DNA of 64,000 bases. Origin: Escherichia coli (GTDB lineage: Bacteria > Pseudomonadota > Gammaproteobacteria > Enterobacterales > Enterobacteriaceae). The stretch is from the NCBI RefSeq assembly GCF_024700885.2, contig NZ_CP117016.1. The stretch is one strand, 5' to 3'. The translations under genes were made by a program, and so were the position numbers. How positions within the stretch are numbered: the stretch's first letter is position 1; each line of letters starts with the position of its first letter. The notes beneath the pieces are model-generated. The model ran no database searches, had not been told where the DNA came from, and saw only the letters and a list, made by a program, of their open reading frames with translations. Below, one piece after another: positions 3,419 through 61,870 of this stretch.

Positions 3419-3503
3419 GCCGAAGTGGCGAAATCGGTAGACGCAGTTGATTCAAAATCAACCGTAGAAATACGTGCCGGTTCGAGTCCGGCCTTCGGCA
3501 CCA
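3419..3503 (+). tRNA. leuX: tRNA-Leu (anticodon CAA)
   Basis: 85-nt sequence GCCGAAGTGG...TTCGAGTCCGGCCTTCGGCACCA with a CAA anticodon loop and long variable arm; genomic position after ahr. Confidence 0.9.
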
Positions 3504-4016
3504 AGTCACTAAATTCCTTACAATACAGGTAGTTAGACAATAAAATCTGTCTCTTTTGCCTGTAAGAAATGCTCTGTTATGTCCCTTGAAAAAGCCGCTG
3601 TGGTTGATAGTGGTAATTGGGATGTTAACTCATAGCGGCGTGTAGTTCCAAGCGTCAAACACGTACTGACTCAACTTGAAAGCTATGACGTAGCCACTGT
3701 CTCTAAACAATCCCAAAAACTTTTAGTGAAGCGCATTTTAGCCCGATGCCCCCGTTCTGCCGCTGTCGCGAGACGCCGCAGGGGATAAACAGGTTTATGG
3801 TGGTCACGGTACTTGCAGACCATATGCAAGCTCTGCCAGCGGTTCGGCCTCGCTCCCCTTGGGTACATGGTCATCCTGATAAGCCTCACTAACTGACATA
3901 ACTGTGATGTAGTCGCCAGAGGCTCCGCTTGTTGTCTTACCACCAACGGGGCTTTATGGATTCTATTGCGGTATGTTTGAAAGTGCGCGGGGGTTCATTC
4001 CCGCGCGTCCGGCGCT

Positions 4017-4931
4017 TTATGGTAAGTATTTAAGTATTTCTGCTGCCCAGTTTACACGGTGGATGACACGGGCATGGTGCAAGTTTCCGTCTAGTATTTC
4101 GGCTTTAGTTAGCTGGGATAACTGCTGCCAATTATTGTTAAGTATATAAGTTGCGTTATTACATTGTGAGCTTTCTAGCACGTAAATGTTTTGGCCTGTG
4201 AACCCAAATATCACGTAGCCTTGGAACCCAGCTTGCCCAACCGCTACGAAATCTGGTTTTTTACTATTGATAAGTTCAAGTCTGCCTTCAACAACAGCGG
4301 TATTGCCCTTTCCCCTGATCTTAATAGCTGAAAGGATTTTTGAGCCGATAGTACTCCAAGGCTGTTGACCCTGAGGCAGGAGGCTCCAGTTTAGTTTTAT
4401 AGATTTACTTTTAACGATGGTATTAAGTTGGTCGTCAACAGTTTCGCACAACCCAAAAAGCTCTAAAAAAAGATTAATGCAGTGAGCCACTAACTCTTTG
4501 TTGTTAGCTGTCAAACTTAGCTTTGGAGAGATGATCAACTTCTCCCCTTGAAGATTCTCTACAATCTTTAACTCTATGCTTGGTGGAGGGGTGAGGATTC
4601 TCTTGTAGCGCTTATACTCAATTTCACGAGTGTCAGTAACTTCTTGAGTTGCGCCCCCTCCGATCCATTGCTTTCTAGTCCATGAAATTTGTCTGTATGC
4701 AGTTTCTTTAGGTGCTGTTTTGTCAGGTACTGATTTGCCATTAGCATTGAATCTGGTTATTGGCCCTAAAATCTTGGGGAGGACTTCTTCACCTAAAGCT
4801 CTTTGACTTGAGAAACCAATAGAGTCCGTTTTCCCCGCATCTGGCAAAGAATGTGCAATGTAGATATCACGGCCATCAAAGTTAGGTATGTAATTATCAA
4901 TATTTCGAATACGCTTTTTCTGAATAAGCAT
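4017..4931 (-). CDS. Hypothetical protein, 304 aa, no family recognised
   Basis: Long ORF in AT-rich island DNA; no motif I can assign. Confidence 0.6.
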   Translation of the reverse strand: MLIQKKRIRNIDNYIPNFDGRDIYIAHSLPDAGKTDSIGFSSQRALGEEVLPKILGPITRFNANGKSVPDKTAPKETAYRQISWTRKQWIGGGATQEVTDTREIEYKRYKRILTPPPSIELKIVENLQGEKLIISPKLSLTANNKELVAHCINLFLELFGLCETVDDQLNTIVKSKSIKLNWSLLPQGQQPWSTIGSKILSAIKIRGKGNTAVVEGRLELINSKKPDFVAVGQAGFQGYVIFGFTGQNIYVLESSQCNNATYILNNNWQQLSQLTKAEILDGNLHHARVIHRVNWAAEILKYLP

Positions 4932-4994
4932 GGATCGTTCCTTTTGATTTTATCTTACTGTTTACATAACCAACCAAGCCGGGCACAATCGAGC

Positions 4995-5094
4995 CGTTAG
5001 AAACGATAGTGAGGCTAACAATCGTTATGAGTTTGCAGACTCATGGCGGTCATGCTTCATAGACCGGATTCACGCAGGTGACTCCGGTTTTTTT
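4995..5094 (+). ncRNA. Candidate small structured RNA with intrinsic terminator
   Basis: Three consecutive hairpins by eye (aacgat/atcgtt; atgagt/actcat; ccgga/tccgg) ending in a 7-T run at 5088-5094; possible sigma70-like promoter (tttaca-17 bp-cacaat) upstream. Confidence 0.3.
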
Positions 5095-5906
5095 ATGCCC
5101 ATCATTTATACATGAGCACAACATATAGGGTGTGTTAATAAGATTACCCCCTACATGTTCAGCATTCTAGTTAGGATTCTTTGCAGTACAAGGGGTGATT
5201 TTGAGGTTAAATTGAGGTTGTCAAAGGGAAATTTCGACCAACCCTACGTGCCGTAAGGCTTAGGCTGTATGTCAATGTTTCAGAAAAAAAATGAAAATTT
5301 GATCGAGTGCTGATTTCTTTAGCACGAGAACATGAGATCGAACCAAAATATTGCAAAGTTTTGAACAAAACTTGAGCTGCCTCGTGTCTCCATAGCCAAG
5401 ACGAATGCAGTTTAAATAAGCTAAGTCAGCTCTCAAAAGTCCTTTATGACCCGAACCAAAAATTGTACCTCTTAAACCCCCACCGCAAGCGGCTCTCCGG
5501 GGTTTGTGCGCGTGGAGTAATGCGATTGTACTGGGTATGTGCGCACAACCCTCTACAAGCCGCATTCTACCGTTAGCCTATAGCTGAATCCCCGGCTTGA
5601 AAAATTGCACGCTTATGGTTGCCCCTCCCTCAACTGTATAGCTCGCCCGCGCCCCCGTGCGCATGTGCGTGCCCGCGCGTCAGGGGTCGCTGAGAAAACC
5701 CTAAGATTTTGCTCATCCGAGACAACCGTTGCAGGCGCGCGTTGCCGGGGCACACTGTTAGTGTTTGATGGTGTCATCAATCGACCGTTTTCTGGCACCT
5801 CCCAATCGCACGCTTTCACACTGTTGGAAAAATAGCCTTGGCTTTTCTGGCAGGCCATCCTAATGTTGGCCTCGTTTTCTGGCAGGGGTCAGATGGGGAG
5901 ATAACA

Positions 5907-9076: not shown

Positions 9077-9101
9077 GGTTCGAGTCCGGCCTTCGGCACC
9101 A
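9077..9101 (+). repeat. Direct repeat of leuX 3' end (att core copy)
   Basis: 25/25 identity to 3479-3503. Confidence 0.85.
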
Positions 9102-9115
9102 AAAGTATGTAAATA

Positions 9116-9138
9116 GACCTCAACTGAGGTCTTTTTTT
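9116..9138 (+). terminator. Native leuX Rho-independent terminator, displaced 5.6 kb from the tRNA
   Basis: Hairpin gacctc-aact-gaggtc followed by TTTTTTT, immediately after the second copy of the tRNA 3' end. Confidence 0.6.
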
Positions 9139-9287
9139 ATGCCTGAAATCCAGTGTTTATCTATCTTTCCCGCTATATTAACTCTCTCAAGGTCAACCGA
9201 TATCAACGTACATCTACCAACATATGTTGGTACAGATGATGGTATTTCCGGTTCGATAATGCTTGTACCAACAGGGAGGGAATACGC

Positions 9288-9878
9288 ATGGCATTAACAG
9301 ATATCAAAGTCAGAGCAGCCAAGCCAACGGATAAGCAATATAAGCTGACTGATGGTGGCGGTATGCATCTGCTTGTCCATCCAAATGGTTCTAAGTACTG
9401 GCGTTTGCAGTACCGTTATGAGGGAAAGCAAAAAATGCTGGCACTTGGGGTTTATCCTGAAATCACACTAGCGGATGCCAGAGTACGTCGTGACGAGGCG
9501 CGTAAGCTGCTTGCGAATGGCGTCGATCCGGGAGACAAAAAGAAAAATGATAAGGTTGAACAGAGTAAAGCACGAACCTTTAAAGAAGTCGCGATTGAGT
9601 GGCATGGCACCAATAAAAAGTGGTCTGAAGATCACGCCCATCGTGTGCTAAAAAGTCTTGAAGATAATCTTTTTGCAGCGCTTGGTGAACGTAATATCGC
9701 TGAGTTAAAAACTCGAGATTTATTAGCACCTATTGTTCCTTTAACCATCCGCAATGGCCAACGGTTTACAGAGCATAATACGAATAGCCGTAGAGCCAGC
9801 CAGTTACGGTGGTCGCGATGGTGTGTCCGCCAGAAAATCACCACGAATACCAGAATCGCGGCACTGACCAGAAAATGA
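9288..9878 (+). pseudogene. P4-type tyrosine integrase (IntB-like), N-terminal ~150 aa only
   Basis: MALTD.KVRAAKPTDK...YWRLQYRYEGKQKMLALGVYPE matches the P4-integrase N-terminal arm; similarity is lost near 9740 and the catalytic domain is absent. Confidence 0.75.
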
Positions 9879-10406
9879 TAAACAGGAAACACGGGGAGGT
9901 TCACTTTGCTTTCTCCTGTAGTATTTTCTGTAGGTTCTGAACCGGTTCGAGCGGGGTTGTGAGGCTGATGGCAATCCCCGGGCTCTTCCTGCATGTTACA
10001 CTGGTACTGCAACAGGGGGCCTTCGCTCCTATGACATTACTCAGTATTTTCACTACTACACCCCATCTGCCATCCATAACAACCGATTCACCCCCTCGGG
10101 AGGCGTTGTTGCCCGTCACCCGGACAGGCATCGTTATGGACTTCTCTTGTTGCACGATCGATCAATTGTTATGCATGCTGACACCACTACCCCGGTGGGT
10201 ATGACCGATGCCTTTCTCACTCTCTTCCCGGTCATCGTCGGCCTTCCCCGTTATTGTGGCGTGTCGGCACCATCGACGGCATTTCGATGGCTGCTCAGTG
10301 TTCACTCACGTTACGGCCCGCATAACCCATTGACTTCCTGAAGAAGTCGTTTCAGGGAGAGATTCAGCCCTTTTGTTACCTCCTGGACCGCTTCCTGTCC
10401 TTCCAG

Positions 10407-10681
10407 TTGGAGCGAGAGTTAGTCGGGGCGGACTTTCACCGACGGAAAGATCGTGCATTTCAAGGCACACACAACAATATCTGCGAGCGTGCTATCCGTC
10501 CGGTCGTTATGGGACGAAAGGCCTGGTTGTTCGCTGGTTCACTGATGGCCGGGAACCGAGCGGCACAGATAATGAGCCTTCTGGAAACAGCAGTCTGGAG
10601 CCACATGCTTGGCTGACGGACGTCCTAACGCGTCTGCCCGGAGTGGCCGGAGGAGAGGTTGGCAGAGTTACTGCCTCTTGA
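10407..10681 (+). pseudogene. IS66-family transposase (TnpC) C-terminal fragment
   Basis: ERAIRPVVMGRKAWLFAGS motif in one frame, continuation in another. Confidence 0.55.
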
Positions 10682-25124: not shown

Positions 25125-25770
25125 AACGTCCGATAGCGATGATCTGAAGTGCACTATTTGCAGCACGCTCCCCACCCCGATTAAGTCGGTAACGGTTCAT
25201 TTTTTTAGAAGATACGGTAACCGAGTTGACACCACACAGCACCGCAAAACCTGATTCTATTCTTAGCCGTTGGGGATTATCTCCGGCAGTGATGAGCAAC
25301 TGCGAAGCGCTTTCGTATCCAACAGCATTACGTTTAATCAGTTCAGGTGCCAGTTCATCGACAATTGCCGCAATCATGACATCAAGGTCGGCGATTTCAT
25401 CATGTAACTCGAAATAGCGTCAGGCAAGTGATTTCAATGCAATGCGATAAACGTTGGTAACATTACGATATTCACTGGCACTAGGCTTCCAGGATCCCGG
25501 AGTCCTGATAAGTTGCATACGTGTCATATTTCTGAGTGGTTCGCGTAATTCATCCGGTGCAGAGATAATATAGGAATGGATAATCTGGAGAGCGACTCTG
25601 CAGGCTGATATTGCGGTTTTGCGGCAAGTTTTTGGCATCCGCTTCTACGCCAAATACCTGAAGTAGGAATGGATGCGTTAGCAGCATACATCCGGATCTG
25701 CGCGGGGAATAGCCGGAAACGGCTATCCCTACCACAATAGCTAACTTTGTAATAGTGCCCTTTTAGGCTC
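25125..25770 (-). pseudogene. Degenerate IS110-family transposase remnant
   Basis: Fragments in two frames with the IS110 C-terminal-domain pattern (FAVLCGVNSV..SSKKMNRYRLNRGGERAANSAL). Confidence 0.4.
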
Positions 25771-26800
25771 ATGTACTCTGACGTAATTCTATCTGGTAGT
25801 TGAATTGCACGATACGCGACTCTTCTGATTCATCATGATTATTATTCAATAGCCCAATCAGTAACTTACCCGTCTCTATCCCCATTTTTTTGTAGTCAAT
25901 ACGGATGGATGTCAAGGTTGGGTGTGTTTGATCGCAATTGTCTGAACCATCAAGACAAGCTACAGCGATATTTTCAGGAATTTTTAACAAACGCCGCTGG
26001 CACTCAAACATGATACCCAGCGCAATCTCTTCGTGGCTGCAAATCACAGCATCCAGCTCTGGTTGTCGCAGTAATATCTCGTTTAATGCGTAACGCCCCA
26101 ATTGCAGACTTGCGGCATCCGGCATGGTGATAACAAGATCAGAGTTCTGGTAATGGCTCAACATTGCTTTATGCCAGCCGTTCAGTTGCTGACGTTGCAG
26201 GCGGTTGTCCATATGCGCACCGATAAATCCGATATTCTTATAACCCTGTTCCAGCAGATGTTCGGTCAGTTTATGTGATGCTTCAAAAAATGCTGTTTCG
26301 ATGGTAATTTGAGCCGGACTGAAAGGGGAACCGACAACGTTAATGGTAGGTATATTTGTTTTCTCGAGTATCTGGTGAGTTTTATCAGCCAACTGAGAAC
26401 CAAAAATAACTAACGCCGCCGGGTTGCCTTGAAGAAGCGTCATCAGAATTTCAGCTTCTTTGAGCTGATTATACTCATGACACCCAAGCAGTAGCTGGAA
26501 TTCATTTTTATTAAGCACCTGCTGCAACGACTGCATAAAGCGGGAGCTGGCTTTATCTGTCAGGGAAGGAACCAGTACGGCGACTGTATCACTGTGACCA
26601 GATGCAAGGGCGCCAGCAGTTCTGTTGGGAATATAACCCAACTCTTCTACGGCCTGTTCTATCTTTTCCCTCAGCTTGTCAGATACCTGTTCCGGTGTTC
26701 TCAGCGCACGGGAAACGGTCATGGTTCCGACACCTGCAAAGTTAGCGACCTCCTGCAGCGTCACCCGTCCGGTACCACGGCGCTTACGTGTTTTTTCCAT
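25769..26800 (-). CDS. LacI-family transcriptional regulator
   Basis: N-terminal HTH VTLQEVANFAGVGTMTVSRAL plus periplasmic-binding-like domain. Confidence 0.8.
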   Translation of the reverse strand: MEKTRKRRGTGRVTLQEVANFAGVGTMTVSRALRTPEQVSDKLREKIEQAVEELGYIPNRTAGALASGHSDTVAVLVPSLTDKASSRFMQSLQQVLNKNEFQLLLGCHEYNQLKEAEILMTLLQGNPAALVIFGSQLADKTHQILEKTNIPTINVVGSPFSPAQITIETAFFEASHKLTEHLLEQGYKNIGFIGAHMDNRLQRQQLNGWHKAMLSHYQNSDLVITMPDAASLQLGRYALNEILLRQPELDAVICSHEEIALGIMFECQRRLLKIPENIAVACLDGSDNCDQTHPTLTSIRIDYKKMGIETGKLLIGLLNNNHDESEESRIVQFNYQIELRQST

Positions 26801-27070
26801 TTCGACTCCATGGATAATTACAACCAGCTGTTTTCATTACTTTTATTTCACCATTACTCTTTCCAGTTTTTGCCCACGGTAGCAAATATCCTGTTGCATT
26901 GTATATGCAGGAACCGAATATAGCCAAAGCATGGCGGCAGAGAAATGATAGCGCTATCACAAAGATTGATAGCGTTATCAGATAGCGCTATCAAATGCGA
27001 CAATCATCACATTAATTAATGCGTAAAATATCTACTCTCCTGTTAATTATCATCGGGAGTTATCAGTAGC

Positions 27071-27514
27071 ATGTTAAAAAATCTATTAAATACAGAGGTC
27101 GTTCAGGTCGTGGAACAGGCCAAAGACTGGCGGGAAGCCGTGGCGATTTCATGCCGGCCGTTGATTGAAAACGGTTCTATCGAACCGCGTTATGTTGATG
27201 CGATCTATCGCTCGCACGACACTATCGGTCCGTACTATGTGGTTGGCCCTGGTATTGCGATGCCTCATGCGCGCCCGGAAGAGGGAGCTAACAAGCTGTC
27301 ATTAGCACTGACCCTGATCCCTTCAGGTGTGAATTTTGATGCCGATGAAAACGATCCAGTGAAATTACTGATTGTGCTGGCTGCAACCGACAGTACCAGC
27401 CACATTGAAGCGATTTCTCAACTCGCCAAGTTATTCGATAACGAAAAAGACATACAGGCCATTTTGATGGCCAAAACGACGCAGGACATTTTGTCTGTTA
27501 TTGCGCGCTATTAA
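27071..27514 (+). CDS. PTS EIIA component (ascorbate/mannitol-type)
   Basis: 147 aa with GIAMPHAR phosphorylation-site motif. Confidence 0.75.
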   Translation: MLKNLLNTEVVQVVEQAKDWREAVAISCRPLIENGSIEPRYVDAIYRSHDTIGPYYVVGPGIAMPHARPEEGANKLSLALTLIPSGVNFDADENDPVKLLIVLAATDSTSHIEAISQLAKLFDNEKDIQAILMAKTTQDILSVIARY

Positions 27515-27529
27515 TCCAGAGGAACATTT

Positions 27530-27817
27530 ATGAAAATTACAGTGGTTTGCGGTAACGGCTTAGGCACCAGCCTGATGATGGAAATGAGCATTAAAAGCAT
27601 TTTGAAGGATTTGTCCGTCAGCGCTGATGTTGATCACGTCGACCTGGGCTCCGCGAAAGGGACGTCGAGTGATATCTATGTCGGCACCAAAGACATTGCC
27701 GAGCAGTTAGTCGCGCAGTCTGTCGCAGGCAAAATCGTCGCACTGGAAAATATGATTGATAAGAAAGCCATGAGAGAACGTTTATCCGTGGTATTAAACG
27801 AATTAGGCGCACTGTAA
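27530..27817 (+). CDS. PTS EIIB component
   Basis: 95 aa with N-terminal VVCGNGLGTS Cys motif. Confidence 0.75.
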   Translation: MKITVVCGNGLGTSLMMEMSIKSILKDLSVSADVDHVDLGSAKGTSSDIYVGTKDIAEQLVAQSVAGKIVALENMIDKKAMRERLSVVLNELGAL

Positions 27818-27829
27818 GCTGGGGGCGAT

Positions 27830-29086
27830 ATGGATTTCTTTCGTTTTTTGATGAGCGATGTACTTTCCGAACCCGCAGTGCTGGTCGGTTTAATCGCCCT
27901 GATTGGCCTGATTGCACAGAAAAAACCGGTAACCGAATGCATTAAAGGTACCGTCAAGACCATTATGGGGTTTGTGATTTTAGGCGCAGGGGCGGGTTTA
28001 GTTGTGTCGTCACTGGGTGACTTCGCAAACATTTTCCAGCATGCCTTTGGTATTCAGGGTGTAGTGCCGAACAATGAAGCCATTGTTTCCGTAGCGCAGA
28101 AAAGCTTCGGGAAAGAAATGGCGATGATTATGTTCTTTGCGATGGTTATCAACATTATGATTGCCCGTTTCACACCGTGGAAATTTATCTTCCTGACCGG
28201 TCATCACACGTTGTTTATGTCGATGATGGTAGCGGTAATTCTGGCAACAGCAGGCATGACCGGCATTACGCTTATAGCCGTTGGCTCTTTGGTTGTTGGC
28301 GTGGCAATGGTCTTTTTCCCGGCTATTGCGCATCCGTACATGAAGAAAGTGACCGGTTCTGATGACGTTGCCATCGGCCACTTCTCAACATTATCTTATG
28401 TATTGGCCGGTTTCATCGGCAGCAAGTTTGGTAATAAAGAGCACTCGACTGAAGACATGAATGTGCCGAAAAGTCTGCTGTTCTTGCGCGACACGCCGGT
28501 TGCTATCTCTTTTACCATGAGCATAATTTTCCTGGTGACGTGCCTGTTTGCGGGTGCAGATGCGGTGAAAGAGCTTAGCGGTGGTAAAAACTGGTTCATG
28601 TTCTCTATCATGCAATCCATTACCTTCGCAGCTGGCGTGTACATCATTCTGCAGGGTGTGCGCATGGTGATTGCGGAGATTGTCCCGGCATTCAAAGGTA
28701 TTTCAGACAAGCTGGTTCCGAATGCCAGACCTGCTCTCGATTGCCCGGTCGTCTTCCCTTACGCACCTAACGCTGTACTGGTTGGTTTCCTGAGTAGCTT
28801 TGCTGCAGGTTTAATCGGTATGTTCACGTTGTATCTGCTGAACATGATCGTGATTATTCCTGGTGTGGTGCCGCACTTCTTCGTAGGTGCAGCTGCAGGG
28901 GTATTCGGTAATGCAACGGGTGGACGTCGTGGTGCGATTTTGGGTGCCTTCGCTCAAGGCTTGCTTATTACCTTCCTGCCAGTATTCTTATTGCCGGTGC
29001 TGGGTGATATTGGTTTTGCTAACACCACCTTCAGTGATGCTGACTTTGGCGCACTGGGTATTTTGTTAGGGATTATCGTTCGCTAA
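27830..29086 (+). CDS. PTS EIIC permease (SgaT/UlaA family)
   Basis: 418 aa polytopic membrane protein immediately after IIA and IIB. Confidence 0.75.
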   Translation: MDFFRFLMSDVLSEPAVLVGLIALIGLIAQKKPVTECIKGTVKTIMGFVILGAGAGLVVSSLGDFANIFQHAFGIQGVVPNNEAIVSVAQKSFGKEMAMIMFFAMVINIMIARFTPWKFIFLTGHHTLFMSMMVAVILATAGMTGITLIAVGSLVVGVAMVFFPAIAHPYMKKVTGSDDVAIGHFSTLSYVLAGFIGSKFGNKEHSTEDMNVPKSLLFLRDTPVAISFTMSIIFLVTCLFAGADAVKELSGGKNWFMFSIMQSITFAAGVYIILQGVRMVIAEIVPAFKGISDKLVPNARPALDCPVVFPYAPNAVLVGFLSSFAAGLIGMFTLYLLNMIVIIPGVVPHFFVGAAAGVFGNATGGRRGAILGAFAQGLLITFLPVFLLPVLGDIGFANTTFSDADFGALGILLGIIVR

Positions 29087-29524: not shown

Positions 29525-30008
29525 TTGAAGTTTAAACTCATTTGAAAATGACCTGCGGGGTTCAGCTGATAATGTTTTTTGTTCTATAACAGGTGTCCAC
29601 TTGTTGAAAAGGTGGGTACCTATGTTACCAATACAGGCTTAATGGCTACATACAGCAGTCGGTTTACGCATACACTTTTATAGTGCACTCCGGCCTCATG
29701 AATATAACGGTGGATTACCGCCGAACGAATCGGAAAATAGATACTGGAAAAAATCTGAAATTGTGACCAGTTTTTGTTGACCACTACAAATAAATAAAAG
29801 AGTTGCAGTGCTTGCTCGGTAAGAAAACAATGGAAGTTGAGATCCTAAAAGAAGCTGTGGAGTACACCACTCTACAGTAGTTGCGCAAATTTGGAGTGGA
29901 CGATAATGTGATCGTCTATAAGGGCAACGCTATCATAGTATTGTCCTGGCGGGTAAAAAAACGCGCTTACATTAACGATAAGCGCGCCGCTGTTCAGGCC
30001 TTAAGTGG

Positions 30009-31022
30009 TTATTCAATTCCTGTGGTGACTGTAAAAGTGCGTGTTTGCTGCGGTGCAACCTGAATCAGCGTGCCATTACGTTGCGCGGCAAGATACCCCT
30101 CAGGCCGACAGGTTGCAGGTAATGCAAAGGCGGCTACCTGTTGCTCGCCGTTATAAAGGATCCAGCGTGTCACATAATTTAGTTCGGCACTGGAGAAACG
30201 AGTAACAAACGTAGTGCCATCGGGAGCGATCATGCGAAACTCTGGCTGATCTGTGTAAGCGTCCAGTTTGTCTGCAAAGAAGACTATTTCTGGATCATAA
30301 AATTCCGGTTGATTCAGCGTCGACAGAGAGGCTTCTCCCTGCATAATCCGTTGATTAAACGCCAGCCACTGAGCGGTGGGATTAACATGCGAAGGTACTG
30401 ATTCACGCAACCTTAATATTTCGTCCGGTATATTCTGGCTGAACGTAGCATTTGGTATATATGCATAATTCATGTGGCACATATATTGTAGTGGCATATC
30501 TACAGAAGCCAGATTGGTTACGGCCATCTTAATATCGAACAATGTAGAGGATTTGTGAAGGACCACTGTTGGCTGAGCCAGATAATGATGCCCGAACCCC
30601 ATTACATACTCGCAACGCCCGGTAAGGCGTAACATATCTCCCTCTAATTCCATCCATGCTTCATCCATCGCGGCACAGGCCATTTCACCGTGTAGCAGAT
30701 GAGTATCTTCCGCAGATGGGCAGCCATTAGCCAGCAAACCTGAATGAAAGGCAAAACAGCCATAGGTTTCTATCACCTCTGTCGCCGGTTTAGGCTGGCG
30801 AAACATATTGCACATGGTGAGACTGTGTCCATCAAATTGCGCATCCCAAATCATCTGCCCCATCCAGGGAAGAATAATTAAATGTCCACGACTGTTTGCA
30901 ATTTTAAGCCCCTCGACACCACTGTCATAGCGAAAAGACGTGACAGTAAAATCACTATTTTCCAGCAAGATACGAGGTTTTTCGCCAAAAAGCGCCCGCC
31001 ACAAATAAATACGCGTACTCAT
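30009..31022 (-). CDS. deoX: DeoX-like protein of the deoxyribose operon
   Basis: 337 aa; operon position after deoK and deoP as I recall for the Salmonella/ExPEC deoQKPX locus; SD aggag. Confidence 0.6.
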   Translation of the reverse strand: MSTRIYLWRALFGEKPRILLENSDFTVTSFRYDSGVEGLKIANSRGHLIILPWMGQMIWDAQFDGHSLTMCNMFRQPKPATEVIETYGCFAFHSGLLANGCPSAEDTHLLHGEMACAAMDEAWMELEGDMLRLTGRCEYVMGFGHHYLAQPTVVLHKSSTLFDIKMAVTNLASVDMPLQYMCHMNYAYIPNATFSQNIPDEILRLRESVPSHVNPTAQWLAFNQRIMQGEASLSTLNQPEFYDPEIVFFADKLDAYTDQPEFRMIAPDGTTFVTRFSSAELNYVTRWILYNGEQQVAAFALPATCRPEGYLAAQRNGTLIQVAPQQTRTFTVTTGIE

Positions 31023-31033
31023 AACGATTCTCC

Positions 31034-32350
31034 TCAGGACTCTGTGACTTCAGCCAGTGCATTACGTACTTTGCTTTCACGCCAGAAGTAGACTCCGACA
31101 TAGACAAAGCAGAGCATAGAAACCAGGAATGAAAGCTGAAGTGAGTGGAACATATCTGCAATATATCCCTGAATTGCCGGAACCACCGCGGCGCCGACAA
31201 TAGCCATAACAATGACTGCTCCTGCCATTTCTGTATGTTCGTTATCAACTGTATCCAGTGTTCCTGCATAGATCGTCGCCCAGCAAGGGCCAAACAAAAC
31301 ACTTACCAGGACGGCGACATAGACCGCGCTGAAACTTGGAGCCAGTGCAACATATGCCAGGAACAGCGCCCCTATAACGGAATAGAGAATCAATACTTTT
31401 TCCGGATTAAAACGCGTCATAAGGATGTTGGCTATAAACTTGCCAATAAAGAAGCAGGCAAAGCTATAGACCATGAAGTTTGAAGCATCACGTTCGTTGA
31501 TATCGCCCAACTCCAGTGCCAGACGGATGGTAAATGACCATACTGCGACCTGCATACCCACATAAAGGAATTGAGCCACAATACCACGACGAAAGCGCGA
31601 ATTTTTAGCCAGATAGCGCAGCGTATCCATTGCTGACGGGCGTTTATGGTGACTTGTCTGTGCCACTTTACAGGTTGGGAAGCGGGTTAAAAGGAACAAC
31701 ACCATGACCACAACCAGAATCATAATCATATACTTATACGGTTCAAGGGTGTTCTCTAACATCAGCACCTTAAAGTTGTGAATTTGCTCGGCGTTCATTC
31801 CGGACATCTGCTTCTCAAGGCTTTCCCCCTCGGAGAAAACCAGATATTTGCCCAATAAAATACCAGACGCAGCACCAATCGGATAAAAGGTCTGGCTGAT
31901 ATTGAGCCGCAATGTGGCATAGGCTTTTGGACCGATCATTGAACTGTATGTGTTCGCTGCAGTTTCAAGGAAACTCAGGCCAATCGCAATCGCAAAAATA
32001 GCTGCAAGGAACATAGTGTAGGTTGCCATATGCGAGGCAGGGAAAAAAAGTGTACAACCACCAATATACAGCGTCAGGCCAATTAAAATTGCCACCTTAT
32101 AACTGGTCTTTTTAATCACAAGGGATGCTGGTATTGCAATTAAAAAATAACCTCCATAAAATGCGCTCTGCACCAATGCTGAAGCAAAGTTACTTAGCGA
32201 AAATACACTTTTGAATTGAGTGATTAATATGTCATTTAATGCAGCTGCGCATCCCCATAGCGGGAATAAACACGATAACAAAATAAACTGGAACAAGGGA
32301 GTCTTATTCAGATATCCATCAGGCATCTGAATGATGTTTTTATCGTTCAT
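31034..32350 (-). CDS. deoP: Deoxyribose permease (FucP-type MFS)
   Basis: 438 aa MFS permease between deoK and deoX. Confidence 0.7.
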   Translation of the reverse strand: MNDKNIIQMPDGYLNKTPLFQFILLSCLFPLWGCAAALNDILITQFKSVFSLSNFASALVQSAFYGGYFLIAIPASLVIKKTSYKVAILIGLTLYIGGCTLFFPASHMATYTMFLAAIFAIAIGLSFLETAANTYSSMIGPKAYATLRLNISQTFYPIGAASGILLGKYLVFSEGESLEKQMSGMNAEQIHNFKVLMLENTLEPYKYMIMILVVVMVLFLLTRFPTCKVAQTSHHKRPSAMDTLRYLAKNSRFRRGIVAQFLYVGMQVAVWSFTIRLALELGDINERDASNFMVYSFACFFIGKFIANILMTRFNPEKVLILYSVIGALFLAYVALAPSFSAVYVAVLVSVLFGPCWATIYAGTLDTVDNEHTEMAGAVIVMAIVGAAVVPAIQGYIADMFHSLQLSFLVSMLCFVYVGVYFWRESKVRNALAEVTES

Positions 32351-32377
32351 AGTGCTACCTTTAACTGTGCAGGATGA

Positions 32378-33298
32378 TTATTCGTTTAAGGTTAAAAATT
32401 CATTAAATTGTTCAATACTCGGATAAGATGATTGCGTACCTTTCCCTGTGACGCTGAAAGCGGCAAAGAGAGCGGCTTTTTTCAAAGCGGCTTCAACATC
32501 ACCGCTTTGAACATAATAATGGGAAAAGCAACCAATAAATGCGTCACCAGCGCCACTAGTATCAACAGCATTTACTTTGAATGCAGGAACATGGACTTCC
32601 TGATCGCGGGTCATCCATAATGCGCCTTTTTCGCTCATGGTAACAATAATATTGTTCAGCCCTTTATCAACTAACGAACGTGCGGCCAAACGAATATGAT
32701 CATAAGTATCAACCGACATACCGGTTAATATTTCCAGTTCTGTTTCATTCGGGATAAAGAAATCACATTTGCAGGCATAAGACATATCTAACTCACGCAA
32801 TGCCGGAGCCGGATTTAATAACACTTCAATACCATTTATCTTACCAAACTCAATCGCGTGGTAAACTGTTTCCAGTTGAACTTCCAGTTGTAAAACGATC
32901 AATTTGCATTTTTTCAGATCTTCTGCAGCTCGATCGATATCTTCCGGGGAAAGAAATTTATTCGCTCCCTTAATTATTAATATACTATTGCTCGAGTTGG
33001 CATTAACAAAGATCGGTGCAACACCACTGCTGGTACAGGGGACCTTCTCAACATAAGTGGTATTAATTCCCCATGATTCAAGATTACGAATAGTATTATC
33101 CGCAAAAATATCATCACCTACTTTAGTCAGCATCAGGACTTTTGAATTCAATTTAGCCGCCGCCACCGCTTGATTAGCACCTTTCCCACCACATCCGATT
33201 TTGAAGGCAGGTGCTTCCAGAGTTTCTCCTTCTTTAGGCATCTGATTAGTGTAAGTAATGAGATCCACCATATTGGAACCAATAACTGCAATGTCCAT
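32378..33298 (-). CDS. deoK: Deoxyribokinase (ribokinase/PfkB family)
   Basis: PfkB signatures (GGKGANQA, DTSGAGDAF); start at MDIAVIG with SD agagg. Confidence 0.75.
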   Translation of the reverse strand: MDIAVIGSNMVDLITYTNQMPKEGETLEAPAFKIGCGGKGANQAVAAAKLNSKVLMLTKVGDDIFADNTIRNLESWGINTTYVEKVPCTSSGVAPIFVNANSSNSILIIKGANKFLSPEDIDRAAEDLKKCKLIVLQLEVQLETVYHAIEFGKINGIEVLLNPAPALRELDMSYACKCDFFIPNETELEILTGMSVDTYDHIRLAARSLVDKGLNNIIVTMSEKGALWMTRDQEVHVPAFKVNAVDTSGAGDAFIGCFSHYYVQSGDVEAALKKAALFAAFSVTGKGTQSSYPSIEQFNEFLTLNE

Positions 33299-33603
33299 TT
33301 CACTACCTCTTATAAACTTTCGCATAACAATGGTATTTAAATAACATTAGCATGTTACTTTTGCATCATTTGTGACTGAGATCGCGATTAGCACATCAAC
33401 CCGATGTTTATTTAATAGACTTCCAGTCTCATCACTCAGGCCAACACTATCTAATCATAAGCAACCTAACAAGATTAGTGCCCAAAACTCAGCAGCCTAT
33501 ACCCTTTTCATTTCAAAGGGTCGGTCGTATAGTATGGTAATGAAAACAATGTTTACTAACGCCAAAATGTTATTTTTATAACATTCTTACGGAGAGAGAG
33601 TTG

Positions 33604-34386
33604 ATGGAAACGAAGCAAAAAGAGCGTATCCGACGTTTGATGGAACTGCTTAAGAAAACTGACAGAATCCATTTGAAAGACGCAGCGCGAATGCTGGAAG
33701 TTTCTGTAATGACTATTCGTCGCGATCTCCATCAGGAAGATGAACCTCTGCCACTGACCCTACTGGGTGGCTATATTGTAATGGTGAATAAACCCGCGCC
33801 ATCCATGCCAGTAATCCATGACGTTCCAAAAAATCATCGTGATGACTTACCTATTGCAATTCTGGCTGCCGGAATGGTTAATGAAAATGATCTGATCTTC
33901 TTTGATAATGGCCAGGAGATACCACTCGTTATAAGCATGATCCCGGATGCAATCACCTTCACCGGCATCTGTTACTCACATCGCGTCTTTGTTGCGTTGA
34001 ATGAAAAGCCTAATGTAACAGCAATACTTTGTGGTGGTACGTATCGTGCCAGAAGTGATGCTTTTTACGATGCCAGTAACTCTTCGCCATTAGACTCTCT
34101 CAATCCGCGAAAAATATTTATTTCCGCCAGCGGTGTGCATAATCACTTTGGCGTCAGCTGGTTTAACCCTGAAGATCTTGCCACTAAGCGTAAAGCGATG
34201 AACCGTGGACTACGGAAAATTTTGCTCGCCCGCCACGCGTTGTTCGATGAAGTGGCCTCTGCCAGCCTTGCACCGATCTCTGCATTTGACGTTCTGATTA
34301 GCGATCGTCCGTTACCGGCAGATTATGTTACGCACTGCCAGAATGGTTCTGTAAAGATCATTACACCTGATTCAGAAGACGAATGA
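33604..34386 (+). CDS. deoQ: DeoR-family repressor
   Basis: N-terminal HTH and C-terminal sugar-phosphate-binding domain; divergent from deoK. Confidence 0.7.
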   Translation: METKQKERIRRLMELLKKTDRIHLKDAARMLEVSVMTIRRDLHQEDEPLPLTLLGGYIVMVNKPAPSMPVIHDVPKNHRDDLPIAILAAGMVNENDLIFFDNGQEIPLVISMIPDAITFTGICYSHRVFVALNEKPNVTAILCGGTYRARSDAFYDASNSSPLDSLNPRKIFISASGVHNHFGVSWFNPEDLATKRKAMNRGLRKILLARHALFDEVASASLAPISAFDVLISDRPLPADYVTHCQNGSVKIITPDSEDE

Positions 34387-35431
34387 CTTACTGAAAAAAC
34401 ACCACAATCTTGTTAAACATCGTCGGATTGGACTGATTACGTTGCACTTTCACCACATATTCCAGCTTATCTATTTGGCTTATCACCTACTCCAGACGCT
34501 GGTCATCCTTGACCAGTAGCCAGATATGGCTTTTGTCGCAGTCCTGAATCGGCAGGCAGAGAATGTCTTCAACGTTAAGAGCGCGACGGGCAAAAGCCCA
34601 CAAAGGTGAGTCATTACACCCGGATGGTAAACAGGCACTTCCTTGTTGTAGAAGCCGTTATATTGCCCATAATGTCTGGGTTTTTAATGCATACTGGGTA
34701 ACAACCGGACGAATCTTCGAATATCACTGGCGCTGCCAGCCGGTTTGAATTCATCTCACAACCCTGCATAGAGCGAATCTCCTGCCTGCACGTCACTCCA
34801 CTCCATGGTATCAACTTCACACTCTTTATCTGCGGCTAGCTTCAGCCACCAGATAAGCATCGACTATGAAAGATGAGCCATGACAACATAACGTTGGTAA
34901 CGCTCTGACGCCTTAATGGAAGATGCCTGCCACCATAGGGAATGTAAACGACTGAAGTGTGGCCTTTAATGCCGTGAACGGCTCATGGTCTCCTGGCACG
35001 GTTGCCGCCCCAACCTGTAACAACATTCCACAGTACAATGTCTGCCAGAGTCAGAGCCTCCCATGCTTGTTGTAGTAACTCTACCAGTTACGAACATCCT
35101 TCCTCAAAATTGTTGTCATATCTCGCATGGAAGAAAAGATCCTGGCTAAGGAGCAACACACAACGTATTGCGGAACTTGCATATTTTTCCTGTAACTAGT
35201 GTATTACCACATATGGTAATAGCTACCTGTGTGGTTTCGCTGGATAGCAAGGGGATTTATTCGCAAGTAAAATGCCTGATAAAATACACGAATCTAGTAA
35301 TCATCAATATTTACTCTGGTCGAATGACGCGTGAAAGTGGACGGCCAACAGACGCAGTCAGTGATCTACAGCCTGTTGAATAAAACCCCGGATGCTTCCC
35401 CCGATTCTGCAAGTAATACTTCGGTTATTTG

Positions 35432-41609: not shown

Positions 41610-42554
41610 TCAAGGGTACGGGTCCGCTTCGTTTGATTTGCGTGTTTTTAACAATTTTAAAACCCAGACATACTGTTCCGGATGTGGCCCCACCAAAATT
41701 TCCACTGTTTTGTTCATTTGTCGGGCAATCATTTTATTGTCCGCGCTGGCAATGCAAGCATCCATTGGTGGCCGAATTTCAATAGTCAGGAGATGTTTTT
41801 TTTCATCATAAACCGGGAAAAGTGGTATAATCATAGCCTGACTGATGTTCATCAGACGTCCAATGATTGGTAATGTCGCTTTATAGGTCGCAAAAAAATC
41901 AGCAAATTCACTGTATTCAGGACCATGATCCTGATCTGGGAGGTAATATCCCCAGTATCCCTGGCGTACTGACTGAATAAATGGTTTTATCCCATCCTCC
42001 CGGGCATGTAAGCGCCCCCCGAATTTACGCCGTACTGAATTCCAGACATAATCAATCACTGGATTTCGTTGCTGATGAAACATGGCGGCCATTTTTTTTC
42101 CCTGAGCTGCCAGCAACATTGCAGGAATATCCACGCTCCAGCCATGGGGAACCAGAAAAATCACATTTCTATTATTGTGTCGAATTTCCTCAAGAATTTC
42201 GAGGCCTTTCCAGAACACTCGTTTCTGGAACTTTTCCGGACCACGAATTGCCAGTTCTGCCATCATCACTATGGATTGCAATGCTGTGGCAAACATTTTG
42301 TCGACAATTATTTCCCGTTCTGTATCACTCTTTTCTGGGAAACAAAGCGATAAATTAATCGTCGCCCTGCGACGAGCTTTTTTGCTCAATCTGCCCACCC
42401 AACGCCCTATTTTTGCCAAGACAGGATCTCTGAATGAAGGGGGAAACATTGAAATACCTGCAATCATTCCCAAAAGGAACCATGTAGACCAGTAAACAGG
42501 GGAAAGGTAATTTTTCTTAAATTCAGGAATAAACTCAGATTTATATTTTTTCAT
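41610..42554 (-). CDS. Lipid A secondary acyltransferase (LpxL/LpxM family, MsbB2-like)
   Basis: 314 aa; LpxM-family call on overall similarity (acyltransferase H-box region around VPHGWS); adjacency to a virK-like gene as on Shigella virulence plasmids. Confidence 0.7.
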   Translation of the reverse strand: MKKYKSEFIPEFKKNYLSPVYWSTWFLLGMIAGISMFPPSFRDPVLAKIGRWVGRLSKKARRRATINLSLCFPEKSDTEREIIVDKMFATALQSIVMMAELAIRGPEKFQKRVFWKGLEILEEIRHNNRNVIFLVPHGWSVDIPAMLLAAQGKKMAAMFHQQRNPVIDYVWNSVRRKFGGRLHAREDGIKPFIQSVRQGYWGYYLPDQDHGPEYSEFADFFATYKATLPIIGRLMNISQAMIIPLFPVYDEKKHLLTIEIRPPMDACIASADNKMIARQMNKTVEILVGPHPEQYVWVLKLLKTRKSNEADPYP

Positions 42555-56151: not shown

Positions 56152-56235
56152 TTTCAGACATATATTATCTCCGTGAGTCCCCCACCACCTTTCCGGTGTG
56201 CGGGGGTTTTGTCTTTTTTCACCGGGAATACATGT

Positions 56236-57108
56236 ATGAATCCGTCTGATGCCATTGAGGCAATTGAAAAACCGCTCTCCTCCCTGCCTTACTCACTTTC
56301 CCGTCACATCCTGGAACATCTGCGCAAACTCACCAGTCACGAACCCGTGATTGGCATTATGGGTAAAAGCGGGGCCGGTAAATCCTCACTCTGTAATGCA
56401 CTGTTTCAGGGGGAGGTCACCCCGGTCAGTGATGTTCACGCCGGCACCCGGGAAGTGCGGCGCTTCCGTCTGAGTGGCCACGGTCACAGCATGATTATCA
56501 CTGACCTGCCCGGGGTGGGCGAGAGCCGGGACAGGGATGCAGAGTATGAAGCCCTGTACCGTGACATTCTGCCTGAACTTGACCTGGTACTGTGGCTGAT
56601 TAAAGCCGATGACCGTGCCCTGTCTGTGGATGAGTATTTCTGGCGACACATCCTGCACCGGGGACATCAGCAGGTGCTGTTTGTGGTGACGCAGGCCGAC
56701 AAAACGGAGCCCTGCCATGAATGGGATATGGCCGGCATTCAGCCTTCTCCCGCACAGGCACAGAACATTCGTGAGAAAACAGATGCGGTATTCCGGCTGT
56801 TCCGGCCCGTACATCCGGTTGTGGCCGTATCGGCCTGCACCGGCTGGGAACTGGATACGCTGGTCAGTGCGCTCATGACAGCGCTTCCCGACCATGCCGC
56901 CAGTCCCCTGATGACCCGCCTGCAGGACGAGCTGCGCACGGAATCTGTCCGGTCTCAGGCCCGTGAACAGTTTACCGGTGCGGTGGACCGGATATTTGAC
57001 ACGGCGGAGAGCGTCTGTATTGCCTCTGTTGCACGCACGGTTCTGCGTGCCGTCCGTGACTCGGTGGTCTCTGTTGCCCGCGCTGTATGGAACTGGATTT
57101 TCTTCTGA
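56236..57108 (+). CDS. yeeP: YeeP/YkfA-family GTPase (50S ribosome-binding GTPase fold), apparently intact
   Basis: G1 motif GIMGKSGAGKSS and G3 DLPG; start set at MNPSDAIEA. Confidence 0.7.
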   Translation: MNPSDAIEAIEKPLSSLPYSLSRHILEHLRKLTSHEPVIGIMGKSGAGKSSLCNALFQGEVTPVSDVHAGTREVRRFRLSGHGHSMIITDLPGVGESRDRDAEYEALYRDILPELDLVLWLIKADDRALSVDEYFWRHILHRGHQQVLFVVTQADKTEPCHEWDMAGIQPSPAQAQNIREKTDAVFRLFRPVHPVVAVSACTGWELDTLVSALMTALPDHAASPLMTRLQDELRTESVRSQAREQFTGAVDRIFDTAESVCIASVARTVLRAVRDSVVSVARAVWNWIFF

Positions 57109-57227
57109 ACACTCTGCCAGGGGAAATGCCTGATTACATTGCGTTAACCAACTGAAAACATGACACAAACACCTCATGCCCCTCCTGTTTCTCTTGCGTG
57201 ACTGCTCTGCTGTTAATAGAATAAAAC

Positions 57228-57263
57228 GATCGATAAAACAGGTATCGATCGTTACTATCGATC
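57228..57263. promoter_or_regulatory. agn43 phase-variation switch: three GATC Dam sites in the OxyR-binding region
   Basis: GATC at 57228, 57247 and 57260 within cgatcgataaaacaggtatcgatcgttactatcgatcg, upstream of flu. Confidence 0.75.
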
Positions 57264-57422
57264 GTTTATAGTGGTTAATGGTCTGCGAAAAGGCAGCTGA
57301 ATCTCTTCATCATGCAGAACGGAATTGCACACAACGGACTGATACTTCTCTGGCGGATGAGAGAGGGGAAGCATTTATGTCCGGGAAAAACCACTTTATC
57401 TGACCATGCTGTTTTGTACCTG

Positions 57423-57457
57423 CCGGTATCCACATTTGTGGGTACCGGCTTTTTTAT
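57423..57457 (+). terminator. Rho-independent terminator-like hairpin in the agn43 leader
   Basis: 11-bp stem ccggtatccac...gtgggtaccgg with one G-U pair, then CTTTTTTATT, 24 bp upstream of the flu ATG. Confidence 0.6.
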
Positions 57458-57480
57458 TCACCCTCTGTAAGGAAAAGCTG

Positions 57481-60327
57481 ATGAAACGACATCTGAACAC
57501 CAGCTACAGGCTGGTATGGAATCACATTACGGGCACCCTGGTGGTGGCTTCCGAACTGGCGCGCTCACGGGGAAAACGCACCGGTGTGGCGGTTGCGCTG
57601 TCTCTTGCTGCTGTCACGTCAGTCCCGGTACTGGCTGCTGACACGGTCGTACAGGCGGGAGAAACCGTGAGCGGCGGAACACTGACAAATCATGACAACC
57701 AGATTGTCTTCGGTACGGCCAACGGAATGACCATCAGTACCGGTCTGGAGTATGGGCCGGATAACGAGGCCAATACCGGCGGACAATGGATACAAAATGG
57801 CGGTATCGCCAACAACACTACTGTCACCGGTGGTGGTCTTCAGAGAGTGAATGCCGGAGGAAGCGTTTCAGACACGGTTATCAGTGCCGGAGGCGGACAG
57901 AGCCTTCAGGGGCAGGCAGTGAACACCACTCTGAACGGCGGTGAGCAGTGGGTACATGAAGGCGGGATTGCAACGGGTACCGTCATTAATGAGAAGGGCT
58001 GGCAGGCCGTCAAATCCGGCGCAATGGCAACCGACACGGTTGTGAATACCGGCGCGGAAGGGGGACCGGATGCAGAAAATGGTGATACCGGGCAGTTTGT
58101 TCGCGGAAATGCCGTACGTACCACTATCAATGAAAATGGTCGTCAGATTGTGGCTGCTGAAGGAACAGCAAATACCACTGTGGTTTATGCCGGCGGCGAC
58201 CAGACGGTACACGGGCATGCGCTGGATACCACACTGAATGGCGGTTACCAGTATGTGCACAACGGAGGCACAGCCTCTGACACGGTTGTAAACAGTGACG
58301 GCTGGCAGATTGTCAAGGAAGGTGGTCTGGCGGATTTCACCACCGTTAACCAGAAAGGCAAACTGCAGGTGAACGCCGGTGGTACAGCCACGAATGTCAC
58401 CCTGAAGCAGGGAGGCGCACTGGTCACCAGTACGGCGGCAACCGTCACCGGCAGCAACCGTCTGGGCAATTTCACTGTGGAAAACGGTAATGCTGACGGT
58501 GTTGTTCTGGAGTCCGGTGGTCGCCTGGATGTACTGGAGGGCCATTCAGCCTGGAAAACACTGGTGGATGACGGCGGAACCCTGGCAGTGTCTGCCGGTG
58601 GTAAGGCAACAGATGTCACCATGACATCCGGTAGTGCCCTGATTGCAGACAGTGGTGCCACTGTTGAGGGGACCAATGCCAGCGGTAAGTTCAGTATTGA
58701 TGGCACATCCGGTCAGGCCAGCGGACTGCTGCTGGAAAATGGCGGCAGCTTTACGGTTAATGCCGGAGGACTGGCCAGCAACACCACTGTCGGACATCGT
58801 GGAACACTGACGCTGGCTGCCGGGGGAAGTCTGAGTGGCAGAACACAGCTCAGTAAAGGTGCCAGCATGGTACTGAATGGCGATGTGGTCAGTACCGGCG
58901 ATATTGTTAACGCAGGGGAGATTCGCTTTGATAATCAGACGACACCGGATGCCGCGCTGAGCCGTGCTGTTGCAAAAGGCGACTCCCCGGTAACGTTCCA
59001 TAAACTGACCACCAGTAACCTCACCGGTCAGGGTGGCACCATCAATATGCGTGTTCGCCTTGATGGCAGCAATACCTCTGACCAGCTGGTGATTAATGGT
59101 GGTCAGGCAACCGGCAAAACCTGGCTTGCGTTTACAAATGTCGGAAACAGTAACCTCGGGGTGGCAACCTCCGGACAGGGTATCCGGGTTGTGGATGCAC
59201 AGAATGGCGCCACCACAGAAGAAGGTGCGTTTGCCCTGAGTCGCCCGCTTCAGGCCGGCGCCTTTAACTACACCCTGAACCGTGACAGCGATGAAGACTG
59301 GTACCTGCGCAGTGAAAATGCTTATCGTGCTGAAGTCCCCCTGTATACATCCATGCTGACACAGGCAATGGACTATGACCGGATTCTGGCAGGCTCCCGC
59401 AGCCATCAGACCGGTGTAAACGGTGAAAATAACAGCGTCCGTCTCAGCATTCAGGGCGGTCATCTCGGTCACGATAACAACGGCGGTATTGCCCGTGGAG
59501 CCACGCCGGAAAGCAGCGGCAGCTATGGCTTCGTCCGTCTGGAGGGTGACCTGCTCAGAACAGAGGTTGCCGGTATGTCTCTGACGACAGGGGTGCATGG
59601 TGCCGCAGGCCATTCTTCCGTTGATGTTAAGGATGATGACGGTTCCCGCGCCGGCACGGTCCGGGATGATGCCGGCAGCCTGGGCGGATACCTGAATCTG
59701 ACACACACGTCCTCCGGCCTGTGGGCTGACATTGTGGCACAGGGAACCCGCCACAGCATGAAAGCGTCATCGGACAATAACGACTTCCGCGCCCGCGGCT
59801 GGGGCTGGCTGGGCTCACTGGAAACCGGTCTGCCCTTCAGTATCACTGACAACCTGATGCTGGAGCCACAACTGCAGTATACCTGGCAGGGACTTTCCCT
59901 GGATGACGGCCAGGATAACGCCGGTTATGTGAAGTTCGGGCATGGCAGTGCACAACATGTGCGTGCCGGTTTCCGTCTGGGCAGCCACAACGATATGAGC
60001 TTTGGTGAAGGCACCTCATCCCGTGACACCCTGCGCGACAGTGCAAAACACCGTGTGCGTGAACTGCCGGTGAACTGGTGGGTACAGCCTTCTGTTATCC
60101 GCACCTTCAGTTCCCGGGGTGACATGAGCATGGGGACAGCCGCCGCCGGCAGTAACATGACGTTCTCACCGTCCCGGAATGGCACGTCACTGGACCTGCA
60201 GGCCGGACTGGAAGCCCGTGTCCGGGAAAATATCACCCTGGGCGTTCAGGCCGGTTATGCCCACAGTGTCAGCGGCAGCAGCGCTGAAGGTTATAACGGT
60301 CAGGCCACGCTGAATGTGACTTTCTGA
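57481..60327 (+). CDS. flu: Antigen 43 autotransporter adhesin (948 aa)
   Basis: Signal peptide, repetitive beta-helix passenger (TVxNxGG repeats), C-terminal beta-barrel ending ...TLNVTF. Confidence 0.85.
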
Positions 60328-60361
60328 TAATCAGGTCACTCTCCTTCAGGCCCCGGTCATC

Positions 60362-60556
60362 ATGACCGGGGCTTTTTACTTTCAGGGAGCAACAGATATG
60401 CCGGGTTGTACATCACGTTTATTGCCCGAAGGCCCTTTCTCACGCGAACAGGCTGTTGCCGTCAAAACAGCTTACCGCAATGTATTTACTGAAGATGACC
60501 AGGGAACATATTCCCGGCTGGTTATCCGTAATGCTGAAGGTCAGTTGCGCTGGTGA
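60362..60556 (+). CDS. Small hypothetical protein (64 aa)
   Basis: ORF only, downstream of flu. Confidence 0.3.
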
Positions 60557-60710
60557 TGCCGGAACACAGCTTAATACTCAGCTCGCCAGTTAAGGGCTTC
60601 TCAGACAATAAACGTCATTCATTTCATCTGTCAGGCCGCGTCTTCTCCGGGAGACGCAGCTTTTTCATTTATTACACCAGTAAATCGTAACCACCGATAA
60701 GGAGCAAATT

Positions 60711-61529: not shown

Positions 61530-61870
61530 TGCAGCATGTCCCTGAAGGCGTGATTCAGGCACCAGAATCACCCGACGCCCCGGAGGCGCTGCCGGGGTGT
61601 CGTTCCATTTCTGATGATGACCTGTGCGCCTGGTGTACCCGTCTGCTTTACCGTCCCGGAGAAATCAGTCTGTGCAGACTGAGTATACAGGCAATGGCAT
61701 CTGGCCATCCGTCTGTGACCGGAACGGTTACGCGTACGGCTGTCCGGAATTTCAGCCGAATATCATTCATCCCTGATATTACCGGGTCATCACGGTCAGT
61801 GATGAACGTGATGTTGCCAGGTCCCGACCTTTACTCCCTCTCATTTATTCACATTACAAGGATTTCATAC

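Follow-up and report, generated by a model that had tools for sequence, protein, structure and literature searches.

An island-borne deoQKPX locus predicted to serve 2-deoxy-D-ribose catabolism in Escherichia coli, and the chromosomal relics at its ends

We analyzed a putative deoxyribose catabolism locus, deoQKPX, in a 64,000-nucleotide stretch of Escherichia coli DNA (NCBI RefSeq assembly GCF_024700885.2, contig NZ_CP117016.1), hereafter called the window. Positions 30009 to 34386, from the deoX stop codon to the deoQ stop codon, hold four intact, long open reading frames (ORFs). Three of them lie on the minus strand, namely, deoX, also called deoM (30009-31022; 337 amino acids; Pfam DUF4432, E value of 2.7e-16), deoP (31034-32350; 438 amino acids; MFS_1, with 324.5 bits against the fucP-type model TIGR00885), and deoK (32378-33298; 306 amino acids; PfkB, E value of 2.7e-62, with 366 bits against the ribokinase-type model TIGR02152). 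The fourth gene, deoQ (33604-34386; plus strand; 260 amino acids; HTH_DeoR and DeoRC domains), is divergent from deoK. An earlier note on this DNA had described a ribokinase-family kinase, a FucP-type permease, a DeoR-type repressor, and a fourth gene at this place, and all four ORFs were indeed found to be intact and to carry the matching domains. The strength of these matches goes well past what chance would produce.

On the minus strand, 11 nucleotides separate deoX from deoP, and 27 nucleotides separate deoP from deoK. We placed the start of deoK at the ATG at 33298, which is preceded by a Shine-Dalgarno sequence (AAGAGG), and not at the ATG at 33325 given in the ORF list, which lacks a Shine-Dalgarno sequence, lies inside the conserved control region described below, and is not kept in other genera. 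For deoQ, an alternative TTG start at 33601 would give a protein of 261 amino acids. The exact DeoQ sequence is present in UniRef (Q67FX0_ECOLX), and it scored 230 bits against the NCBIfam DeoR model NF007961, below the cut-off of 244 bits, indicating that DeoQ is not DeoR but a paralogue of it. Twenty-one nucleotides past the deoX stop codon, an intrinsic-terminator-like hairpin on the minus strand (29960-29988) combines an 11-bp stem with a following TTTTTTT; it sits in a stretch homologous to the ilvN-uhpA intergenic region of K-12. An Rfam scan detected no RNA family within the deo locus.

We then compared the four proteins with those of Salmonella, using as the S. enterica subsp. enterica reference locus a contig found through a member of the DeoP cluster. 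In global alignments, DeoK and DeoP were 95.8% (306 residues) and 95.9% (438 residues) identical to their counterparts, while DeoQ and DeoX reached 83.9% and 83.4%, respectively. DeoK was also 95.4% identical to an S. enterica subsp. salamae protein that bears the UniRef name "Deoxyribokinase" and falls into the same 90% cluster. The earlier note had likened the arrangement to the deoQKPX locus of Salmonella and had proposed alignment to Salmonella deoK and deoP as a check, with low identity counting against its reading; identity proved to be high, and the arrangement is the same. On four Salmonella contigs, a DeoR-family gene (261 amino acids) is divergent from genes coding for a PfkB protein (306 amino acids), a major facilitator superfamily (MFS) protein (438 amino acids), and a DUF4432 protein (337 amino acids), and the order, orientation, and sizes of the four genes are alike in three Salmonella subspecies and in the window. 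The Salmonella locus also has the same control-region motifs and the same Met10 residue in DeoK, both of which are discussed below, although the DNA identity between the two loci is only about 79%. The differences between the deo genes of the window and those of Salmonella lie overwhelmingly at third codon positions, and this excess indicates that the genes are under purifying selection.

The names given in RefSeq by the annotation pipeline PGAP suggest another function, since deoK is labeled rbsK, deoP is labeled fucP, and deoX is assigned to the "aldose 1-epimerase family." If these names were right, the genes would encode a second ribokinase, an L-fucose permease, and an aldose epimerase, and the sugars used would be ribose or fucose instead of deoxyribose; the broad models TIGR02152 and TIGR00885 are indeed passed. 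However, both proteins failed the E. coli equivalog models, DeoK scoring 249.5 bits against the RbsK model NF008353 (cut-off, 341) and DeoP scoring 285.2 bits against the FucP model NF007524 (cut-off, 427). The RefSeq names are family-level labels. K-12 RbsK and FucP belong to the same families as DeoK and DeoP (PfkB and FucP-type MFS), but they are paralogues and not orthologues. In an alignment of DeoK to E. coli RbsK (1gqt/1rkd), Met10 takes the place of Asn14, which contacts ribose, Tyr16 takes the place of Asn20, Asp12 corresponds to Asp16, and the GAGD motif retains the catalytic Asp252. Met10 is reportedly the residue that distinguishes deoxyribokinase, according to the work of Tourneux et al. 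in 2000 on the DeoK of Typhi. In K-12 evolved in the laboratory for growth on deoxyribose, RbsK was changed at Asn14 and at Asn20 (N20Y) (PMC6452873). Furthermore, a role in ribose or fucose use fits poorly with the 96% identity to Salmonella DeoK and DeoP within the same four-gene arrangement. E. coli also has rbsK and fucP at other places in any case. We consider it very unlikely indeed that the RefSeq names describe the function of these genes. Because the automated names are those of rbsK and fucP, metabolic reconstructions that use product names would miss the deoxyribose trait. In a side comparison, the ribokinase structures of human and mouse gave DeoK a higher score (214 bits) than E. 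coli RbsK did (168 bits), and these two mammalian enzymes also have a methionine at the position of Asn14.

The earlier note had left the fourth gene without a function. A search of the PDB with the DeoX sequence found no relative. We built an AlphaFold model from 33 homologues (predicted local distance difference test score [pLDDT], 83.5; predicted template modeling score [pTM], 0.86), and its best match among solved folds was 3ty1, an aldose 1-epimerase (E value of 1e-13; template modeling [TM] score, 0.76). Further matches were 3mwx, 4bze, and 1nsz, and the galactose mutarotases of Bacillus subtilis and Lactococcus lactis were among them. Judging from this model, a function can thus be proposed for the gene: DeoX would be a protein of the aldose 1-epimerase fold and is presumed to act as a deoxyribose mutarotase. 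The fold matches are in line with the view, reportedly put forward by Assairi et al. in 2004, that the Salmonella protein is a deoxyribose mutarotase, DeoM. The name DeoM is in use in the literature (PMC3899980).

The divergent genes deoK and deoQ are separated by a 305-bp control region (33299-33603). It contains two copies of a 20-nucleotide palindrome, AATGkTATTTwwATAACATT (33329-33348 and 33566-33585), 237 bp apart. A further palindrome, TAACATTAGCATGTTA (33342-33357), overlaps the element at 33329-33348, and a CRP-like site, TGTGACTGAGATCGCG, lies at 33371-33386. Across 12 enterobacterial genera, the palindromes and the CRP-like block show no or almost no variation, in contrast to the remainder of the spacer, and the E. 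coli alleles preserve them as well. Matches to DeoR-type half-site patterns were limited to the control region and one other place. The half-sites of the palindrome (TGTTA...TAACA) resemble those of the DeoR operator. From these motifs we infer that the palindromes are operators of DeoQ, and possibly of DeoR, that overlap the deoK and deoQ promoters, with activation by CRP. The CRP consensus is not enriched in the window (34 matches versus 32.8 expected), so that it is only the cross-genus conservation that argues for the site at 33371-33386.

The deoQKPX locus is already known as a well-described accessory locus and fitness trait, and a kinase/aldolase route for deoxyribose has been described (PMC6365646). 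In the pathway that we propose here, DeoP, a FucP-type MFS proton symporter, would import deoxyribose, and DeoX/DeoM would speed the interconversion of its anomers and ring forms, these two steps presumably following in that order. The PfkB kinase DeoK would then convert deoxyribose and ATP to deoxyribose 5-phosphate, which the core-genome aldolase DeoC would cleave to glyceraldehyde 3-phosphate and acetaldehyde. DeoQ would repress deoKPX from the palindromic operators in the 305-bp spacer and would be released by the sugar, and the conserved CRP-like site suggests catabolite control. Deletion of deoK in Salmonella abolishes growth on deoxyribose (PMC13432705), and 2-deoxy-D-ribose supports the growth of E. 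coli strains that carry deoQKPX but not of K-12, which has no deoQKPX (PMC7924626). While kinase activity, growth phenotype, and colonization advantage are thus taken from the literature on Salmonella and on other E. coli strains, our own computations covered gene content and integrity, orthology, synteny, the specificity residue, the fold of DeoX, motif conservation, and the presence of deoC in the species. On this basis, we conclude that the region very probably represents an intact, island-borne deoQKPX regulon for the catabolism of free 2-deoxy-D-ribose.

Several points weigh against this conclusion. DeoQ and DeoX are only about 84% identical to the Salmonella proteins that have been studied. 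Ribose, too, is phosphorylated by DeoK (PMC13432705), and deoxyribose may therefore not be its sole substrate. The deoC gene of this strain lies outside the window. Finally, the strongest -10 candidate has the sequence GCTAAT or GTTAAT in the E. coli alleles where other genera have GATAAT, so that the strength of expression may differ.

The last two points also bear on the possibility that the deo genes are intact but silent or ineffective in this strain, as a cryptic trait, due to a weak promoter, a DeoQ that does not respond to inducer, or a defect outside the window. Such a state would be in line with the departure of the -10 candidate from the GATAAT kept in other genera, and deoR, like deoC, is not within the sequence seen. 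However, the four ORFs are full length, the ribosome-binding sites and the control region are conserved, and the other E. coli alleles that we examined have these promoter variants too. In addition, E. coli strains reported to carry deoQKPX do grow on deoxyribose (PMC7924626), nearly every complete E. coli genome has deoC (5,423 of 5,426), and the third-position differences from Salmonella speak for purifying selection and not for a cryptic state. We therefore regard a silent locus as improbable and retain the functional deoQKPX regulon as our reading.

The deo genes lie in a genomic island, as the earlier note had stated. The tRNA-Leu(CAA) gene leuX is located at 3419-3503, colinearity with K-12 ends at 3504, and only short K-12 patches follow; the deo genes are found about 26 kb into this variable region. 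The last ~25 nucleotides of leuX, together with the start of K-12 intB, recur at ~9077 (~9077-9734), and this second leuX 3' end suggests that two islands are placed in tandem at leuX. The note had also claimed that K-12 lacks the locus, which we could confirm: in K-12, ilvN and uhpA are direct neighbors that enclose no further gene, and the leuX region is free of deo genes, in agreement with published data (PMC7924626). The presence of deoQKPX marks the strain as not K-12-like, and it helps to predict its range of carbon sources.

A LacI-family gene (25769-26800, minus strand) and genes for the IIA, IIB, and IIC components of a phosphotransferase system (27071-29086, plus strand) directly adjoin the deo cassette. 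Together, the genes at 25769-29086 match the vpe carbohydrate-permease operon reported beside deoK (PMC6455142, PMC5382810). Indeed, the deoK operons described on E. coli pathogenicity islands (PAIs), namely, in strain AL862 at pheV, on the LAC PAI of Shiga toxin-producing E. coli (STEC) lacking a locus of enterocyte effacement (LEE), on ROD 40 of NCTC 86, and in Nissle 1917/CFT073, consist of the same cassette beside vpe in a large island at a tRNA gene, with an Ag43/Cah-type autotransporter at its end (PMC6455142, PMC5382810, PMC7545054). The insertion site differs, being leuX in the window and pheV in the strains first described. The deoK operon that adjoins vpe on E. coli islands promotes gut colonization (PMC6455142, PMC7545054, PMC5382810). 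The breakdown of DNA makes deoxyribose available in the gut, and reports credit the operon with raising competitiveness as well as intestinal colonization.

To describe the distribution of the locus, we scored it as present at a coverage of at least 80%. The 4.4-kb deo locus was found in 1,593 of the 5,426 complete E. coli genomes (29%), almost always on the chromosome and with an identity of 97.5 to 100%. The alleles form at least two groups that differ by about 2%, one of which is represented in the window. Carriers include enterotoxigenic E. coli (ETEC) O6:H16, STEC O103:H2, and B2 strains, as well as a commensal strain, NCTC 86, and a probiotic one, Nissle 1917 (PMC5382810, PMC7924626). 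The locus is thus common in E. coli. The earlier note had named Salmonella and extraintestinal pathogenic E. coli as carriers, but the locus also occurs beyond extraintestinal pathogens.

The comparison with Salmonella, Citrobacter, Raoultella, Klebsiella, Enterobacter, Leclercia, and other enterobacteria allowed us to define the ends of the cassette (29875-34628), since homology to the other loci stops sharply on both sides. The genomic setting is different in the other genera. The Salmonella locus is part of the core chromosome and lies between intact ilvB-ilvN and uhpABCT, whereas the window copy is a 4.75-kb cassette in the leuX island; in Citrobacter, Raoultella, Enterobacter, and Leclercia, the deo locus likewise lies between intact ilvN and uhpA. 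Both ends of the cassette carry relics of these neighbors. The left relic (29875-30008, minus strand) comprises the ilvN-uhpA intergenic region and the first ~63 bp of uhpA, frameshifted, and is 84% identical to K-12 (4665-4802 of the K-12 stretch compared) and 82 to 83% identical to Salmonella. The right relic (34388-34628, minus strand) corresponds to the last 241 bp of ilvN. With its premature TAG and 1-nucleotide deletion it is a pseudogene, and RefSeq likewise lists it as one ("acetolactate synthase small subunit").

The ilvN relic is of the E. coli type. Its identity is 91% to K-12 versus 76 to 82% to Salmonella and Citrobacter, and it has E. coli-specific codons (..DKSH.., VQRNQS, and FFQ*). 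We compared three E. coli alleles of the relic and found the premature TAG, the 1-nucleotide deletion, and the breakpoint to be common to all of them, which indicates a single capture. Changes that occur in a single allele show no bias toward any codon position, a pattern that decay following the capture would produce. The inferred relic ancestor differs from K-12 ilvN at 16 positions (11 of them third codon positions), from the resident ilvN of the B2 type at 13 (8 third positions), and from S. enterica ilvN at 53 (40 third positions), and the K-12 and B2-type resident genes differ from each other at 10 positions, all of them third positions. Furthermore, third-position identity to Salmonella was 48 to 54% for the deoK, deoP, and deoX genes of the window and 52 to 62% for ilvN, ilvB, uhpA, and uhpB of K-12. 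The deo genes are thus as diverged from Salmonella as the core genes that flank the native site.

These sequence comparisons suggest that the donor chromosome of the cassette fell inside the diversity of E. coli or at its margin and was not that of Salmonella, and the E. coli-type ilvN relic argues against the published idea of an import from Salmonella. Formally, the relic could also have been converted to the E. coli type by the resident ilvN, but such a gene conversion must have spared all of the lesions of the relic. We thus lean, with some reserve, toward the hypothesis that the cassette is the ancestral ilvN-deoQKPX-uhpA locus of the E. coli lineage, which would have been excised once, with breaks inside ilvN and uhpA, moved to a tRNA-associated island, and lost from its native site, so that it now persists only as island cargo. 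The proposed origin of the cassette in the E. coli lineage is a modestly new point. The flanking scraps date the cassette and point to its source, and on this hypothesis they would offer a small and clean case of a core locus kept in a species only through its uptake by a mobile island.

A search for the donor among genomes of 80 species other than E. coli gave a best DNA identity to the cassette of about 80% (range, 75 to 80%), and no DeoX homologue with an identity between 84% and 98% was found among 5.8 billion proteins. Similarly, a query made of deoQ, the relic, and K-12 ilvN-ilvB retrieved the native arrangement, at a coverage of at least 80%, in none of the 5,426 complete E. coli genomes, indicating that the source lineage is unsampled or extinct.

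We also scanned metagenomes with a gapped DNA pattern in which an E. coli-type deoQ end is followed by an intact ilvN. Two contigs were returned, OJVA01000027.1 (3449-3722) and OMBO01000503.1 (9761-10034), and we rejected both as examples of a native deo-ilvN locus. In both, the ilvBN part was 99.9% identical to the resident ilvBN of sequence type 73 (ST73)-type strains (such as Nissle, CFT073, and 25DN), and the deo part was 99.4 to 99.8% identical to the island copy of 25DN. The contigs switch from one to the other exactly in stretches of 29 and 21 nucleotides that are common to the resident ilvN and the relic. Both break off within the cassette, and more than 1 Mb separates the resident ilvBN from the island deo copy in the finished genome of 25DN. 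The two contigs are thus most likely short-read assembly chimeras caused by the ilvN relic.

In K-12, the gap between ilvN and uhpA, which is the native deo site in the other genera, measures 75 bp. In E. coli 25DN (B2), the same gap holds a 1.4-kb insert with a DUF6708 gene (3806-5270 of the stretch examined). The ilvN-uhpA gap may be a recurrent spot for the gain and loss of genes.

Some further features were observed in the window. At 2113-2204, between yjgR and ahr, the cluster idnR-idnT-idnO-idnD-idnK (~5 kb; GntII gluconate/idonate) is missing in comparison with K-12, and loss of the idn cluster has likewise been reported for Nissle 1917. The Rfam scan detected a fragment of a group II intron (D1-D4) at 10306-10445 (minus strand, 66 bits) and an IS102 RNA at 57226-57462 (plus strand, 75 bits). 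A second lpxM gene, coding for an msbB-like lipid A myristoyltransferase, is located at 41610-42554. It adjoins a truncated virK (flank at ~42.6-43.2 kb) and lies between copies of the insertion sequences IS3 and IS1 within the chromosomal island; lpxM-virK is a module known from the virulence plasmids of Shigella and enteroaggregative E. coli (EAEC). Finally, the stretch at 56173-62344 carries genes for a YeeP-like GTPase, a DUF932 protein, an antirestriction protein, and, at 57406-60327, an autotransporter of the Ag43/Cah type that has ESPR, AIDA, and Autotransporter domains, and the island continues past the end of the window.

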